From an uncultured Gammaproteobacteria bacterium (GTDB lineage Bacteria > Pseudomonadota > Gammaproteobacteria > Thiohalorhabdales > CAYUWI01): 45,506 nt of DNA. The stretch spans positions 1-45,506 of the forward strand of contig CAYUWI010000003.1 in the NCBI GenBank assembly GCA_964448275.1, in the 5' to 3' direction. Every line of letters starts with the position of its first letter. The stretch's first letter is position 1. The notes below the pieces were generated by a model. That model did not search any database, was not told where the DNA came from, and worked only from the letters and a program-made list of their open reading frames with translations. Shown one piece after another: positions 29,046-41,966 of the stretch. A program made the translations under genes and the position numbers.

Positions 29046-29143
29046 GATTTCCGCCTTCTGCCAAGGCAGCGCACGCTGTCATCCAGCAAAGTCCCTGTCT
29101 AACTTGGAAATCGCCAATAGAGCCCATCTTCTGACCGTATATC

Positions 29144-30916
29144 ATGAGTCCTCAGCGTGACTCTGGCCGCCCTCCCATCGGCGAGCAGATACCGATCCAG
29201 CTCAAGCGCCTTGCTCGCAACGAGCAACTCATCCTCTCTCTGTTGGCAGCGATCCTTGGTGCGATGGCCGGTCTCTCAGCAATCGCCTTCCGTATGGCGA
29301 TCACCGGGGTGCAATGGGTTGCCCTCGGCTTCACCAGCGAAACTGTAGCGAGCCAAGCAACGGGCCTTCCCTGGTGGCGCCTGCTGTTCGCGCCCACTAC
29401 CGGCGGTCTACTCCTCGGGCTCTTTGTCTACTTCCTTATGCCAGGACGCCGGCCGCAAGGGGTAGCCCAGGTCATTGAGGCCAACGCCTTGAGCGGTGGC
29501 CACATGTCACTGGTGACTGGCCTCAAATCAGCGCTGGTCAACGCTGCCTCGATCGGTGTCGGAGCCTCGGTGGGCCGGGAAGGACCTGTAGTCCACCTTG
29601 GAGCGAGCCTTGGCTCTTGGCTATCTCAGCGTCTGCGGTTAACGCGCATAGCCTCCCGGACCCTGCTCGGGTGTGGCATAGCAGCAACGGTCGCTACCTC
29701 TTTCAATGCCCCGATCGCTGGTGCGTTCTTCGCCCTCGAAGTAGTTCTCGGCCATTATAGGCTCTCCGCCTTTGCCCCCATCGTTATCGCCTCAGTCACA
29801 GGGACCATCGTCAGCCGCACTTACTACGGAGACCATCCCGCCTTCGTGCTCCCGGAACTCTATGGGATTACCTCCTTCTTAGAATTTCCGGCCTTTGCAC
29901 TTCTCGGAATTATCAGCGCCATCGCCGCAATTTTGTTTATGCACACAGTGATGTTTTGCGAGGACCTGTTCGATCGCCTCAAGCTACCTCCCTGGAGCCG
30001 ACCGGCGATTGCCGGACTCGCGGTCGGGGTTATTGCTCTCGCCGGCTTTCCCCATGTACTTGGGGTTGGCTATGAGGCAACTGACTCAGCTCTCTCTGAA
30101 CTCTACCCACTCTGGCTCCTGCTCGCCCTTATCGTCCTCAAGACAGCAGCGACTGCCCTCTGCCTTGGCAGTGGTTTCGGGGGCGGGGTCTTTTCACCAT
30201 CACTCTTCTTAGGGGCTATGGTCGGGGGCGCCTACGGGGTCATTGCCACCAGTGCCTTTCCTGACCTCTCTTCGGGTTATGGGACCTACACAATTATCGG
30301 TATGGGCGCGGTTGCCGGCGCCATTCTGGGAGCACCCATCTCCACGATCTTGATGATCTTTGAACTCACCGGGGATTATGCAGTCACCATCGCCGTGATG
30401 ATCGCTACAGTAATTGCCAGTGCAGTCACCCAGCTAGGACATGGCCGCTCGTTCTTTGCTTGGCAGCTCGAACGTCTCGGTGTCACTATCGAGAGTGGTC
30501 GAAATTTGGATTGGGAGAGATCGACCCTTCGAATCGACCAGTTGATAGACACCAACTATGAGACAATACACCCCAACACTCCGATTAACACGGCGCGTGA
30601 GCGCTTGGTCACAGCACCGGGAGGTGAACTTCTGGTGGTTACCGACACCGGGCATCTAACCGGAACCCTTACCCTGCAGGACCTCGCTGAGGCGTCCTCC
30701 GAGACCTGCCGTAATCCGCATCTGATGGTCGCCGAAGTTGCGCGTCGAGACCCCCCCCTACTCGAACTCAACGACGATCTAGGGCGTGCAGTGACCCTCT
30801 TCAGGAGGTCAGGCAAAGCCCACTTACCCGTTGTGACCGATCGGGAGACCCTCTATCCTGTCGGTTTCCTCTACGCACATGCCGTAATGACCGCCTCTTA
30901 CCCGGGTCACAACTAG
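29144..30916 (+). CDS. ClC-family chloride channel/antiporter with C-terminal CBS pair
   Basis: SVGREGP, FNAPIAGAFFALEV, GGVFSPSLF, MIFELTGDY; CBS-like C-terminus. Confidence 0.93.
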   Translation: MSPQRDSGRPPIGEQIPIQLKRLARNEQLILSLLAAILGAMAGLSAIAFRMAITGVQWVALGFTSETVASQATGLPWWRLLFAPTTGGLLLGLFVYFLMPGRRPQGVAQVIEANALSGGHMSLVTGLKSALVNAASIGVGASVGREGPVVHLGASLGSWLSQRLRLTRIASRTLLGCGIAATVATSFNAPIAGAFFALEVVLGHYRLSAFAPIVIASVTGTIVSRTYYGDHPAFVLPELYGITSFLEFPAFALLGIISAIAAILFMHTVMFCEDLFDRLKLPPWSRPAIAGLAVGVIALAGFPHVLGVGYEATDSALSELYPLWLLLALIVLKTAATALCLGSGFGGGVFSPSLFLGAMVGGAYGVIATSAFPDLSSGYGTYTIIGMGAVAGAILGAPISTILMIFELTGDYAVTIAVMIATVIASAVTQLGHGRSFFAWQLERLGVTIESGRNLDWERSTLRIDQLIDTNYETIHPNTPINTARERLVTAPGGELLVVTDTGHLTGTLTLQDLAEASSETCRNPHLMVAEVARRDPPLLELNDDLGRAVTLFRRSGKAHLPVVTDRETLYPVGFLYAHAVMTASYPGHN

Positions 30917-31109
30917 CCCTGAGAGTCCCCTCCTGAAACAAAGCGGTCATCTGATGATCCGCTGCATTGAGGTAACGGACAGTCTTGATGGCCCAACAAG
31001 GAAGGCTGGAGAAGAAGAGATCGAAGGAGAACAACCAAAGTGCTGAGCTGGTCACTACCAGCCGGTTGTGGGGCTTGGATCAACGTAGCAGGCAATAGAG
31101 GTAGGGACT

Positions 31110-31667
31110 TTAGCCTAAGAGGGCAGTCACCATTGCACCTAATGTAATCAAGGTGATGACACCGCCAACCAAGATCCAACCCACTAAGGAAATCGCGCGC
31201 AACGTCGGCCTGTCGAAGGCCGTCACTGGAGATAAGGTGACTTGGATAATGGGGACAATGACCGCTTGGGCTATCCGATCTCCACAGGCTATACAGAAGT
31301 CCGTGGGACCATGATTCACCAACCCCACCACCACTTCGTCACCGAAACCATCGCCTACCTTCTCAGGCGAATTGAGAACGGTCACCCCAGGTTGTGCCGC
31401 CAAACCCACATGGGGACGGATTTGGAGCTCATATCCTGATGGCACAGCGACGGCGATACCTGTCGGAATCGTCGCGCTCTCCCCCGGAGAGACTGTCACC
31501 CGCGGTACAGGGATTGCAGCGCGTAGATCGACCCCCTTAGACAGGGAGGTACGGTGGTCCGGTAATTCAAAGTGCTCAGGGTAGCTCGCCGCCACACCCA
31601 TACGTTGGACTGGGACTGGGATGAATTCACCTACACCGATTTGCTGCACCATGATCCGTTGGCTCAT
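31110..31667 (-). CDS. dUTPase-fold protein with degenerate active site and C-terminal hydrophobic helix
   Basis: GVDLRAAI, IPTGIAVAVPSGYELQIRP and GDRIAQAV are trimeric dUTPase hallmarks. Motifs II, III and V are altered. AGGAGG RBS before ATG 31667. Confidence 0.8.
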   Translation of the reverse strand: MSQRIMVQQIGVGEFIPVPVQRMGVAASYPEHFELPDHRTSLSKGVDLRAAIPVPRVTVSPGESATIPTGIAVAVPSGYELQIRPHVGLAAQPGVTVLNSPEKVGDGFGDEVVVGLVNHGPTDFCIACGDRIAQAVIVPIIQVTLSPVTAFDRPTLRAISLVGWILVGGVITLITLGAMVTALLG

Positions 31668-31780
31668 GGACACCTCCTGGTAGCGATCCGCAGACCGCCC
31701 CTCAAAAATCAACCTCTATCCAAAATCACCCACCTTTTTACATCCCTGTAATTAAGACCTGACGGACTGACGAGGGTTCA

Positions 31781-31836
31781 ATCCCAGTCCATCATTGCCC
31801 TTGACTTATCACTTCGGCTGGACCCAGGACTGGGAT
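31781..31836. repeat. 10-bp perfect inverted repeat just downstream of dnaB
   Basis: ATCCCAGTCC (31781-31790) and GGACTGGGAT (31827-31836), 36-nt spacer, no clear U-tract. Confidence 0.55.
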
Positions 31837-31846
31837 CCCACCTGTA

Positions 31847-33637
31847 TCAGTAGCCCGTTGCCCAATCCGGGCCCGCATAGTTTTCAAAGCGAGCACACTT
31901 ACTAAGAAAAGTCAAATGGACAACACCAGTCGGACCGTTCCTCTGTTTACCGATGATCAGGTCCGCCCGGCCCTGAACCTCTGGATTCTCCGGTTGGTAC
32001 ATTTCTTCCCGATGGATGAATATAACCACATCGGCATCTTGCTCAATCGCCCCCGAGTTATGGCTCACGATACCGTCGGCAAGCCACGAAGTGGGCCCTG
32101 GAACACTGAGGTCATAGACCTCCTCCTCTCCATCGGACTCGAGTCCGATAACTCGATCCCAGAGCAACTCACCCCCCTCTCCAGCCGGTTGACCCACTCT
32201 CGGCCACGGCGAGACCGCCACACTGTCTCCCAGACTAAGCCGATCAACCCGGCACCAGCCATTCTCCCCGAGCAATTGATGACCATGACTCGTACGGAGC
32301 CAACGGCCACTCGCAAGATGGAGGGCCAATACCGGCCTGGCCCCGACCCGCCAAACCTGATTGCTCGCAGCAGGCCTCAGTCGACCCTGGGAGGTTACGG
32401 CAATGACCTCCGGTGTGGTCCCGACTAGCTCGCGAACAGGTCGCCGCTGACCATCACTCAACACAACAGGGGTTTCTCCGGTAACGCACTCTCGCAGATC
32501 AGACATCTTAGGCCATTCCTGACGCTGTTCCGGTCTGCGGCTAAGCTGAGAGAGCGCGATCACCGGGACGTCTAACTCTCGGGCTAAGGCTTTCAACGAG
32601 CGCGAGATCTCGGAGATCTCCACGGTACGATTTTCCGTTGTCCCTGCCCCATGCATGAGTTGGAGGTAATCGACAATCACCAGACCGAGACCCTGTGCGC
32701 GTTTGAGCCGACGGCAGCGGGCCCGGAGCTCGATCGGCCCTAGCGCGGAGGTGTCGTCGATGAACATGGGTGCCTCGGAGAGCTCGCCTACTGCCTTGGT
32801 CAGCTTGGGCCAATCCTCATCATGCAGATTGCCATTCCGCATCCTTTGGGCGTCAATGCGGGCACGTGACGCCAACAGCCGCATCGTGAGCTGCTCGCAG
32901 GGCATCTCCAGGCTAAAGAGGGCCACTGGTGCGCGGCTGTTCACACAGACGTGTTCCGCCATATTCAGTACGAAGGCAGTTTTCCCCATGCTCGGGCGTC
33001 CAGCAACGATGATTAGATCCGCACTCTGGAGGCCTGAGGTCCGCTCATCGAGATCTTCAAACCCGGTTGGGAGGCCTGTTAGAGGGGTGTCAAGCTGGAA
33101 CAGCTCATCAAGGCGCTCGACACTTTCACGGAGCAGGTCACGCAGGGGAGTAAACTCGCTTCGACGCTGTTTAGTCTGGTCTGCGATACGAAAGATGCGT
33201 TGTTCGGCAAGATCGAGGATATCAGCGACGGAGCTCTCTCCCGGACGGAAGGCATCTTCCGAGATCTCTCCGGCCGCCTGGATAAGGGCACGTAATATAG
33301 ACCGCTCGCGAACTGCTCGGGCGTAATGGGTAATGTTGGCTGTTGTAGGAGTACTGTTCGCTAGAGAGGCCAAATAAGCGGCCCCGCCGACCGTGTCGAG
33401 ATCTCCCTGCCGTTCCAAAAGATCAGAAACTGTAACAATGTCTACAGGCTGCTGTTGCGCGGTAAGCTGGCCTGCAACCTCGAAAATCAGCCGGTGATCA
33501 TGGCGATAAAAGTCCTCCGCACCAATGAGGTCAGCCACACGATCCCAAGCCTGATCATCGATTAGTAGCCCCCCGAGTACCGATTGCTCAGCCTCAATGG
33601 AGTGAGGGGGGACCTTGAGATCCTCCGGCGTCTCCAA
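31847..33637 (-). CDS. dnaB: Replicative DNA helicase DnaB (intein-containing)
   Basis: PPHSIEAEQSVLGG, GRPSMGKT, FSLEM, VDYLQLM, ALSQLSR, SDLRE|...|SGAIEQDADV, KQRNGPTG. Confidence 0.98.
   Translation of the reverse strand: METPEDLKVPPHSIEAEQSVLGGLLIDDQAWDRVADLIGAEDFYRHDHRLIFEVAGQLTAQQQPVDIVTVSDLLERQGDLDTVGGAAYLASLANSTPTTANITHYARAVRERSILRALIQAAGEISEDAFRPGESSVADILDLAEQRIFRIADQTKQRRSEFTPLRDLLRESVERLDELFQLDTPLTGLPTGFEDLDERTSGLQSADLIIVAGRPSMGKTAFVLNMAEHVCVNSRAPVALFSLEMPCEQLTMRLLASRARIDAQRMRNGNLHDEDWPKLTKAVGELSEAPMFIDDTSALGPIELRARCRRLKRAQGLGLVIVDYLQLMHGAGTTENRTVEISEISRSLKALARELDVPVIALSQLSRRPEQRQEWPKMSDLRECVTGETPVVLSDGQRRPVRELVGTTPEVIAVTSQGRLRPAASNQVWRVGARPVLALHLASGRWLRTSHGHQLLGENGWCRVDRLSLGDSVAVSPWPRVGQPAGEGGELLWDRVIGLESDGEEEVYDLSVPGPTSWLADGIVSHNSGAIEQDADVVIFIHREEMYQPENPEVQGRADLIIGKQRNGPTGVVHLTFLSKCARFENYAGPDWATGY
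32057..32488 (-). mobile_element. Mini-intein (144 aa, no homing endonuclease) in DnaB
   Basis: Begins CVTGETPV, block-B-like LRTSHGH, block F/G VYDLSVPGPTSWLADGIVSHN followed by Ser+1. Removal restores SDLRE-SGAIEQDAD. Confidence 0.95.
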
Positions 33638-33669
33638 CGTTATTTTTCCCTCACATTTGCGGGGAACAC

Positions 33670-34116
33670 CTATATACCGGCTACTGAGACGGTAATCTCG
33701 ACCGTTACATCGGGATGGAGACGGACCTGTACGGTATGCTCACCGACCTCCTTGATCGAACCATGCGGTAAAAGCACTGCCCCGCGGTCGATCTCGAACC
33801 CCTGCTCCTTCAAGGCCTCTGCAATGTCGGCATGGGAGACCGAGCCGAATAAGCGGCCTGCCTCAGCCATGCGGCGTTCCATTTGGAGCGTGGTTCCAGC
33901 GATCTGCTCACCCACGGCTTGATAGTGGTTTAAGAGCTCCTGTTGACGTGCCTCATACGCCTTACGCCGGGCTTCAAACCGAGCTCGATTGGACTTGGTA
34001 GCAGGAAGGGCCTTCTCCTTCGGCAGCAAGTAGTTGCGTGCATACCCCGGAGCGACATCCACCACTTCTCCCAGACTGCCTAAGTTCTCCATCTTCTCGA
34101 GCAGGATGACTTCCAT
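33670..34116 (-). CDS. rplI: 50S ribosomal protein L9
   Basis: MEVILLEK.ENLG.LG, GYARNYLLP, GRLFGSV. Confidence 0.97.
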   Translation of the reverse strand: MEVILLEKMENLGSLGEVVDVAPGYARNYLLPKEKALPATKSNRARFEARRKAYEARQQELLNHYQAVGEQIAGTTLQMERRMAEAGRLFGSVSHADIAEALKEQGFEIDRGAVLLPHGSIKEVGEHTVQVRLHPDVTVEITVSVAGI

Positions 34117-38451: not shown

Positions 38452-38539
38452 GCCGAGGTGGCGGAACTGGTAGACGCGCTAGATTCAGGATCTAGTGGAG
38501 GTAAGCTCCGTGCCGGTTCGAATCCGGCCCTCGGCACCA
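38452..38539 (+). tRNA. tRNA-Leu(CAG)
   Basis: Acceptor GCCGAGG/CCTCGGC + ACCA, D-loop GGAACTGGTAGAC, anticodon arm CTAGA-TTCAGGA-TCTAG, long variable arm, GGTTCGAATCC. Confidence 0.97.
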
Positions 38540-41226: not shown

Positions 41227-41966
41227 CTACTGCTTGGAAATCAAAGGATTTTGGGGGAAATTACAGGTCCGCTGATCACCCGAACAGCGCAGCAATTCCT
41301 CCTTAAGGACCTCGAGCCACCGGGCCAATGCGAGATCCGCCTCAGAGCGGGACAACAGGCGTTCAATGGCGGCACTCAGGGTAGCAATATCTCGATTCAT
41401 CCGTCGGCTGAGTTCGGCCAGTGTCAATCGGGGGTGTTCACGCACAAGCCAAGCGACCGTGGCACGAGCTTGCGCTGGGCGCCGTTTCTTGCCATTGGCC
41501 CGTAGATCTTCCTCACGTAAGGCATAAGCCTCACACACCTTAGCGATCACAGTATCCAAGCTCAGCTCGGGAGAAGTCGATTTCTTCGCCTTCTCGAGGG
41601 CCTCGCGGATAAAGGTATCATCCCCTAATAAACGCTCCCCGCGTGTCCCATAGAGGTGGATATATCGGACGAGTTCCAGGAGGTATATGTCTGCCTCGAT
41701 CAGGAGTGCCTGATATCGGCCCTGGAACAGGTGGCCCTGGCGACCCAACCGATGGTTGACCCAACGCGTATAGCGAAAAGAGAGATTCTGTATGATCCGG
41801 GATAAAGAAACCTCTGCCACCTGGATAGCGAGGTGGACATGGTCTGCCATGCAGAGGTAGAAATGGTAGTAATCTTGGGGCTTAAAAAAAGACCTGTTGA
41901 CCCGCATTCCCTCGCAGTAACGTGATACCATGCCCCTGGAAAGGGTAGCCGCGGTTTACGTGCCAT
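41227..41966 (-). pseudogene. Decayed RAYT/IS200-like Y1 (HUH) transposase with C-terminal HTH
   Basis: MARKPRL..PGAWYHVTAR, then two frameshifts near 41910 and 41885 (reconstructed RGNAGQQVFFKPQDY). HUH motif DHVHL, GHLFQGRY and RYIHL present. Expected segments before the HUH motif and after YIHL (NPV..WSS) appear deleted. Confidence 0.85.

Follow-up and report, generated by a model that had tools for sequence, protein, structure and literature searches.

A putative tail-anchored dUTPase-fold pseudoenzyme in a lineage of uncultured Gammaproteobacteria

In homotrimeric dUTPases (Dut, EC 3.6.1.23; PF00692, TIGR00576), the Arg and Ser residues of motif II together with motif V hold the triphosphate, the Asp residue of motif III activates water and the C-terminal arm closes the site. 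The fold also serves purposes besides catalysis, as the staphylococcal phage dUTPases act as a protein-binding signal via the Stl repressor. As described in an excerpt of PMC8961515, completing each dUTPase site takes the three subunits together with the flexible arm of motif V. Excerpts of the literature on animal viruses further describe members of this fold that are devoid of activity. Adenovirus E4-ORF1 is dUTPase-derived, keeps the fold, is inactive and homotrimeric, and is found at the plasma membrane via its extreme C-terminus (PMC4006922; PMC8961515), while the herpesvirus dUTPase-related proteins (UL72 and UL31 of HCMV, ORF11 of KSHV and LF1/LF2 of EBV) are duplicated or diverged forms, in which motifs and activity were lost and binding roles were gained (PMC8961515). 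Bacterial tail-anchored membrane proteins (TAMPs) are in turn defined, in the excerpted sources, by one hydrophobic segment, placed at the extreme C-terminal end, and the absence of an N-terminal signal (PMC6794478, PMC3087755). No dUTPase-fold member of the TAMPs and no bacterial or membrane-anchored inactive dUTPase are mentioned in the titles and abstract beginnings of the literature retrieved.

The locus described here lies within a 45,506-nucleotide stretch of DNA (the window) from an uncultured gammaproteobacterium and encodes the protein P0001. Pseudoenzymes with the dUTPase fold are well known in animal viruses; the one predicted here is bacterial and putatively tail-anchored. Considered as a package, we lean with some reserve towards a conserved, lineage-restricted, tail-anchored dUTPase-fold pseudoenzyme, which would act by binding and not by catalysis. 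P0001 resembles the homotrimeric dUTPases in having the same fold, motif IV, the motif I Asp and 41-56% identity to canonical enzymes, which is the level observed between canonical dUTPases of different phyla. It differs from them in the loss of the motif II Arg/Ser, the motif III Asp/Tyr and motif V, in the addition of a hydrophobic tail and in falling below the TIGR00576 cut-off. A kept fold with lost catalytic motifs, by which dUTPase-fold pseudoenzymes are recognised, is thus what P0001 presents. The staphylococcal phage dUTPases provide a precedent for a trimeric dUTPase serving as a protein-binding signal, but they are active and soluble and carry an extra motif VI insert. In the excerpts cited above, E4-ORF1 is unlike P0001 in being viral and eukaryote-directed, with an indirect membrane recruitment by a PDZ-binding motif and Dlg1 and no transmembrane helix, whereas the herpesvirus proteins are likewise non-bacterial, derive from the monomeric herpesvirus dUTPase with motif VI, greatly exceed P0001 in size and lack a membrane tail. 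No specific sequence relationship that would indicate shared descent with the viral pseudoenzymes was found, and the best sequence and fold matches are all bacterial dUTPases; hence, E4-ORF1 and the herpesvirus proteins are analogues of P0001, not relatives. With TAMPs, P0001 shares, in its translation, the single C-terminal hydrophobic segment and the lack of an N-terminal signal.

Fold and catalytic motifs of P0001

The initial annotation had described an uninterrupted ORF preceded by an AGGAGG ribosome-binding site, and both are present as listed in Table 1. P0001 matches the Pfam family PF00692 (E 3.5e-10, 40.2 bits with a cut-off of 22) and the NCBIfam model NF001862 (107.7 bits, just over the cut-off of 103), and obtains 90.1 bits against TIGR00576, under its cut-off of 102.55. 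Its closest solved structure by sequence is 3mbq (E 2e-25). No match of P0001 to the dCTP deaminase (Dcd) model PF22769 was obtained, while nearly all canonical relatives among the matches listed in a 5.8-billion-cluster search carry PF22769 as well; the real dcd gene of this genome is located on another contig. The base composition of the ORF is host-like (GC 0.56, GC3 0.60). Judged by its sequence, P0001 is a genuine dUTPase-fold protein.

Table 1. Positions in the window of the P0001 ORF, its motifs and its upstream neighbour
Feature	Position	Strand	Basis and remarks
Complete ORF of the putative dUTPase-fold pseudoenzyme P0001	31110..31667	-	ORF and translation; 185 codons and stop, uninterrupted
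Shine-Dalgarno sequence AGGAGG	31673..31678	-	Read from sequence; 5 nt upstream of the ATG at 31667
dUTPase-like jelly-roll domain, residues 32-153	31209..31574	-	Pfam envelope; same coordinates in whole-genome search
Degenerate motif II, PHVG for PRSG, residues 85-88	31404..31415	-	Alignments
Degenerate motif III, PEKVGDGFGDE for PGTIDxDYRGE, residues 101-111	31335..31367	-	Alignments
Intact motif IV, GDRIAQ, residues 129-134	31266..31283	-	5/5 conserved columns kept
Hydrophobic tail, predicted tail-anchor transmembrane helix replacing the motif V arm, residues 159-185	31113..31193	-	Hydropathy, AlphaFold2
dnaB with mini-intein, upstream same-strand neighbour	31847..33637	-	Pfam DnaB, DnaB_C, Intein_splicing; 179-nt gap to the ORF

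The state of each motif was assessed using an alignment of 95 rows (A2), comprising P0001, its variant P0268 and 93 canonical single-domain dUTPases, in which 57 columns with at least 80% agreement among the 93 canonical rows were treated as conserved. An earlier reading, according to which the dUTPase fold is kept and motifs II, III and V are erased with the loss of the catalytic Asp and the Tyr of motif III, is matched exactly by the residue-level alignments. Motif I reads SKGVDL where canonical enzymes have SAGxDL, with Asp47 kept. In motif II, the changes R86H and S87V affect an Arg and a Ser that all 93 canonical rows share. In motif III, the catalytic Asp is replaced by Gly105 and the Tyr by Phe108; D106, the residue following the lost Asp, has a glycine on either side and might in principle take over its role. 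Motif IV retains G129, R131, I132, A133 and Q134. Motif V (RGxGGFGSTG) is absent and ISLVGWILVGGVITLITLGAMVTALLG (residues 159-185) stands there, with no motif V remnant in any of the three reading frames of the ORF. A compensated frameshift behind the odd motif III or the tail was considered and rejected, since the other frames contain stops and no motif remnant.

Counted over the conserved columns, P0001 retains all 25 of the scaffold, all five of motif IV and three of the four in motif I, and has lost two of five in motif II, seven of eight in motif III and seven of ten in the motif V region, where the three columns scored as kept are glycines that the aligner forced onto the tail. Losses in motifs II, III and V taken together amount to 16/23 as compared to 1/34 elsewhere (Fisher p = 6e-8, a value which is indicative only, because the motif limits were set by the authors). 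Because three of the five motifs are gone, P0001 is very unlikely to hydrolyse dUTP, and its dUTPase activity has in all likelihood been lost.

An AlphaFold2 model of P0001 built on the 95-row alignment has a mean pLDDT of 82.4 and a pTM of 0.73, with the β-core mostly above 90, the motif III loop at about 60 and a single helix comprising residues 153-184 at 58-75. Using this model in a Foldseek search of the PDB, the top matches were all dUTPases (3mbq, 7n56 and 8y1q, E ~1e-11), with TM-scores normalised to the target of 0.78-0.82, and Stl complexes with a bacterial dUTPase (7pwx and 8p8o) are among the matches. As every fold-determining position is kept, P0001 is probably a trimer; a three-copy prediction with alignment A2 gave a score of 0.00, which bears on the trimer neither way.

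The C-terminal tail and its predicted topology

In the place of motif V, a hydrophobic stretch of about 27 residues had been noticed, and this is borne out by residues 159-185, which constitute 27 uncharged, mostly hydrophobic residues running to the last residue of P0001. The 19-residue Kyte-Doolittle mean reaches 2.29 at residues 165-183, which is the strongest window of the protein and clearly exceeds the value usually required of transmembrane segments. Neither a second long uncharged hydrophobic run nor an N-terminal signal is found in the P0001 translation, and positively charged residues, R154 and R158, are located just before the tail helix. In the variant P0268, the tail carries the substitutions L161F, V180A, T181S and L184F, by which its hydrophobicity is kept. 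Membrane insertion of the tail is suggested by its hydropathy. Since there is no N-terminal hydrophobic segment and two Arg residues precede the helix with nothing following it, an N-in topology is most likely, in which the positive-inside pattern of R154/R158 would put the dUTPase-like domain in the cytoplasm, next to the inner surface of the cytoplasmic membrane. No source segment for the tail was found in its own genome by tblastn (best E 0.16), and a search with the tail only (residues 143-185) singled out the query alone among 21 candidates.

Distribution and selection

Using the 5.8-billion-cluster search, the next match after the own cluster of P0001 is an ordinary dUTPase with 110 bits and 46-47% identity, among the best 120 clusters. 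A phmmer search of 1.84 billion representatives yielded 11,707 proteins passing E 0.001; among the best 150 of these, only three proteins besides the query exceed the 1e-30 level, and the best single-domain match has 107 bits and 48% identity. These three strongest non-self matches (P0121, P0122 and P0123 with 473, 434 and 282 aa, respectively) have three or two tandem dUTPase domains, i.e. they are single-chain pseudo-trimers or dimers. The view offered by these searches extends to the best 120 clusters and the best 150 of 11,707 proteins, and a very diverged relative scoring below the canonical enzymes could hide beneath. Among the 267 proteins collected, two fail all three motif patterns, namely the query and a 135-aa fragment without a hydrophobic end, and the query is the only one with its strongest hydropathy window at the C-terminus. 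No close relative of P0001 was found in seven genomes of the same order and 33 further genomes of the same class, the ESM Atlas contained ordinary dUTPase clusters only, and a scan of metagenome contigs with P0001 gave one locus, 34% identical over residues 67-130, and no relative of interest. In a class-wide survey, PF00692 matched 287 of 300 scored genomes (four unpublished ones included), with 256 further matches beyond those listed, which leaves it uninformative about second copies.

Homologues sharing the tail and the motif losses, the existence of which the initial annotation had left to be established, were thus found in part: one variant at 94% identity and part of a third variant were recovered, and nothing outside the same narrow lineage among the matches listed. 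Within these matches, the putative pseudoenzyme is lineage-restricted. The variant P0268, from another assembly and the same 90% cluster, has 185 aa, of which 173 are identical (94%), without any indel or stop, and it retains both the degenerate motifs and the tail. The core (residues 30-143, 114 residues) has three of the 12 differences, and the other nine fall within the 71 residues that flank it.

Four public sequencing runs, none of them listed as RNA, were compared over positions 29100-33700. This stretch is present in three sediment samples, all from one study, and the window itself may derive from one of them; a diverged form is contained in run X4, a hypersaline-lake metagenome of another study, whose contig covers 31198-31419. 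The X4 contig differs from the ORF in 6 of 222 bases (2.7%), five of the changes being synonymous and one non-synonymous (V113M). This corresponds to a dN/dS of 0.065 (Nei-Gojobori, 73 codons; p = 0.005 for at least 5/6 synonymous changes under neutrality), an estimate which rests on six changes in one contig at a depth of 2.6, with the tail outside the covered region. The sequences known amount to two of full length and one 222-bp fragment, and it is because so few exist that the estimate is confined to this one low-depth contig. Counting only differences listed away from contig ends, the three pieces of the ClC gene in X4 have a dN/dS of 0.10, and the intein part of dnaB, at about 0.33, is looser than the neighbouring genes. 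The ClC and dnaB pieces diverge by 2.9-3.7% when the listed differences are used or 4.4-4.7% by per-contig totals, which exceeds the 2.7% of the ORF. A dN/dS near 1, as expected for a decaying duplicate, is therefore not what is seen, the value being ~0.065 over 73 codons as compared to 0.10 for the ClC gene, and the ORF is, from this pattern of substitutions, a maintained gene under purifying selection and not a decaying copy. Because the scaffold is fully kept under purifying selection, its folded and probably trimeric body would be the functional part, working by binding, and we infer a binding function on this ground.

Genomic setting, possible origin and competing explanations

The source genome comprises 1.88 Mb in 254 contigs, is 85% complete and belongs to the uncultured Gammaproteobacteria in the broad sense; its PurA is at most 62% identical to that of any of 80 species representatives. 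The genes rpsF-rpsR-rplI-dnaB(intein)-ORF follow one another on the minus strand and are convergent with a ClC channel gene, past which lie dapD and dapE. The mini-intein of dnaB is recognised by Intein_splicing at residues 391-527 (E 8e-12) within DnaB_C, and the open frames of 455-485 aa at the place of dnaB in same-order genomes suggest that no intein is present there. Promoter-like and terminator-like sites number zero and zero in 30700-32000, so that co-transcription of the ORF with dnaB is possible. A tRNA-like string in the dnaB-ORF spacer (31668-31846) was dismissed, as ARAGORN and Rfam find none in 30800-32000. The locus had been ranked as the best novel-system candidate, a view that its surroundings do not sustain: the neighbours (rplI, dnaB and the ClC channel gene as well as dapE) are of a housekeeping type, PADLOC finds no defence family (0 matches), PHROGs returns the generic dUTPase family only, and there is no mobile, phage or defence context, no partner gene near the ORF and no system around it.

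A separate canonical dut elsewhere in the genome, whose presence was to be confirmed, was indeed found on contig C119 and has the full set of five motifs. Most genomes of the same class have a dut that is 45-56% identical to it, while its identity to the dUTPase-like ORF is only 28%. C119 is 4.7 kb long and comes from a metagenome bin of 85% completeness, and this dut is assigned to the genome by composition only, the tetranucleotide profile of C119 correlating with the rest of the genome at r = 0.941 (rank 55 of 63 contigs of similar size). In the same-order relatives (seven, from one genus), dut is located between dcd and coaBC and its product is 41-46% identical to that of the ORF. In the genome of the window, the stops of dcd and coaBC are 19 bases apart on contig C4 (L030:1476-1494) and the dut slot is empty. 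The dcd gene on C4 (L030:255-1475) is itself intein-bearing, with 406 aa, Pfam DCD in two stretches and Intein_splicing at E 4.5e-17, as compared to ~205 aa in the relatives, and two intein-bearing nucleotide or replication genes (dnaB and dcd) are present in this one small genome. In three of six same-order loci and in one same-class genome, where the order is dnaB-alr-coaBC-dut, dnaB is directly followed by alr, whose place is taken by the ORF here; a search with one query recovered no alr from the genome of the window, which is 85% complete. In quick trees, the ORF pair has a very long stem (2.14 changes per column versus a median end branch of 0.34) and is placed inside the other large dUTPase clade, apart from the class-type clade (100% support), and the same-order dut is also located in that other clade. 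Grouping of the ORF with the same-order dut is not rejected by the AU test (p = 0.349), by which such a grouping is not thereby shown. The ORF may represent the order's ancestral dut at a new location, released from its task by the class-type dut, and it may equally have been acquired independently.

A rival explanation is that P0001 is a functionless relic, i.e. a redundant second dut that lost its activity and drifts, with the open frame and the tail being accidents as yet undestroyed. This would fit the singleton lineage with nothing similar outside its own cluster among the matches listed in the 5.8-billion and 1.84-billion searches, the coverage of catalysis by another gene and the very long stem branch. 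However, intact conserved scaffold columns (25/25) with losses confined to the catalytic motifs, five synonymous changes versus one non-synonymous change at a total divergence below that of the neighbouring genes, the same 185-aa length without indels in the 94%-identical variant and a strong ribosome-binding site all speak against drift, and a relic is held to be unlikely. Purifying selection would be consistent as well with a protein that is still an enzyme, such as a membrane-bound hydrolase or another catalyst with a remodelled site (for example D106, D110, E102 and E111) and a substrate other than dUTP, for which the retained Asp47 of motif I, Arg131 and Gln134 of motif IV and Asn99 as well as the new motif III loop rich in acidic residues can be cited. 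An enzyme of this kind appears quite improbable, given that P0001 lacks the motif II Arg/Ser, which in dUTPases bind phosphates, as well as the whole motif V lid, that the DCD family PF22769 is not matched, unlike in canonical relatives, and that the literature, judged from titles and abstract beginnings, offers no precedent.

We attach similarly little probability to a soluble P0001, whose tail would not anchor it in a membrane but mediate oligomerisation as a buried helix, signal degradation or form an end prone to aggregation. The AlphaFold2 confidence of the helix is just 58-75, insertion is proposed from hydropathy and the glycine-rich small-xxx-small spacing could equally serve to pack helices. 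Against this stand the unbroken run of 27 uncharged residues, in which the Kyte-Doolittle mean reaches 2.29, the two Arg residues immediately upstream and the substitutions in P0268, which keep the hydrophobicity.

In the preferred reading of a tail-anchored pseudoenzyme, a dUTPase-fold domain without dUTP hydrolysis would be joined to a C-terminal tail-anchor helix that tethers it, on the inner side, to the cytoplasmic membrane. The hydrolysis of dUTP would be carried out by the separate class-typical dut, because of which P0001 would act by binding, not by catalysis, and its ligand would be a protein partner or a nucleotide-like molecule accommodated in the remodelled groove of the former active site. 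Beyond this, it is possible, and put forward tentatively, that a deep-branching lineage of hypersaline sediments turned a dUTPase, perhaps the coaBC-linked one ancestral to its order, the slot of which is vacant today, into a tail-anchored dead trimeric platform at the inner membrane face, which recruits a protein or senses a uracil nucleotide, while a second, class-type dut does the chemistry. If this platform reading is true, P0001 would be the first cellular (non-viral) dUTPase pseudoenzyme and a bacterial counterpart of E4-ORF1. Provided that P0001 is produced and enters the membrane, it would offer a clean natural experiment in the conversion of an enzyme to a scaffold, with all fold positions kept, only the catalytic residues replaced and the flexible catalytic arm swapped for a membrane helix. 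Its weight is limited because it concerns one uncultured lineage, with no partner genes hinting at a pathway and no assigned function, and as a conserved gene known from one narrow lineage it is a curiosity rather than a new system.

Elsewhere in the window, two further features were recorded. A 234-aa ORF at 41227-41931 (minus strand) carries both an IS200-like Y1 transposase domain (PF01797, E 3.8e-8) and the C-terminal helix-turn-helix of DnaA (PF08299, E 4.2e-10), and the sole tRNA gene of the window, tRNA-Leu(CAG) at 38452-38539 (plus strand), is flanked by the genes for RNase R and purA, which are both on the opposite strand.
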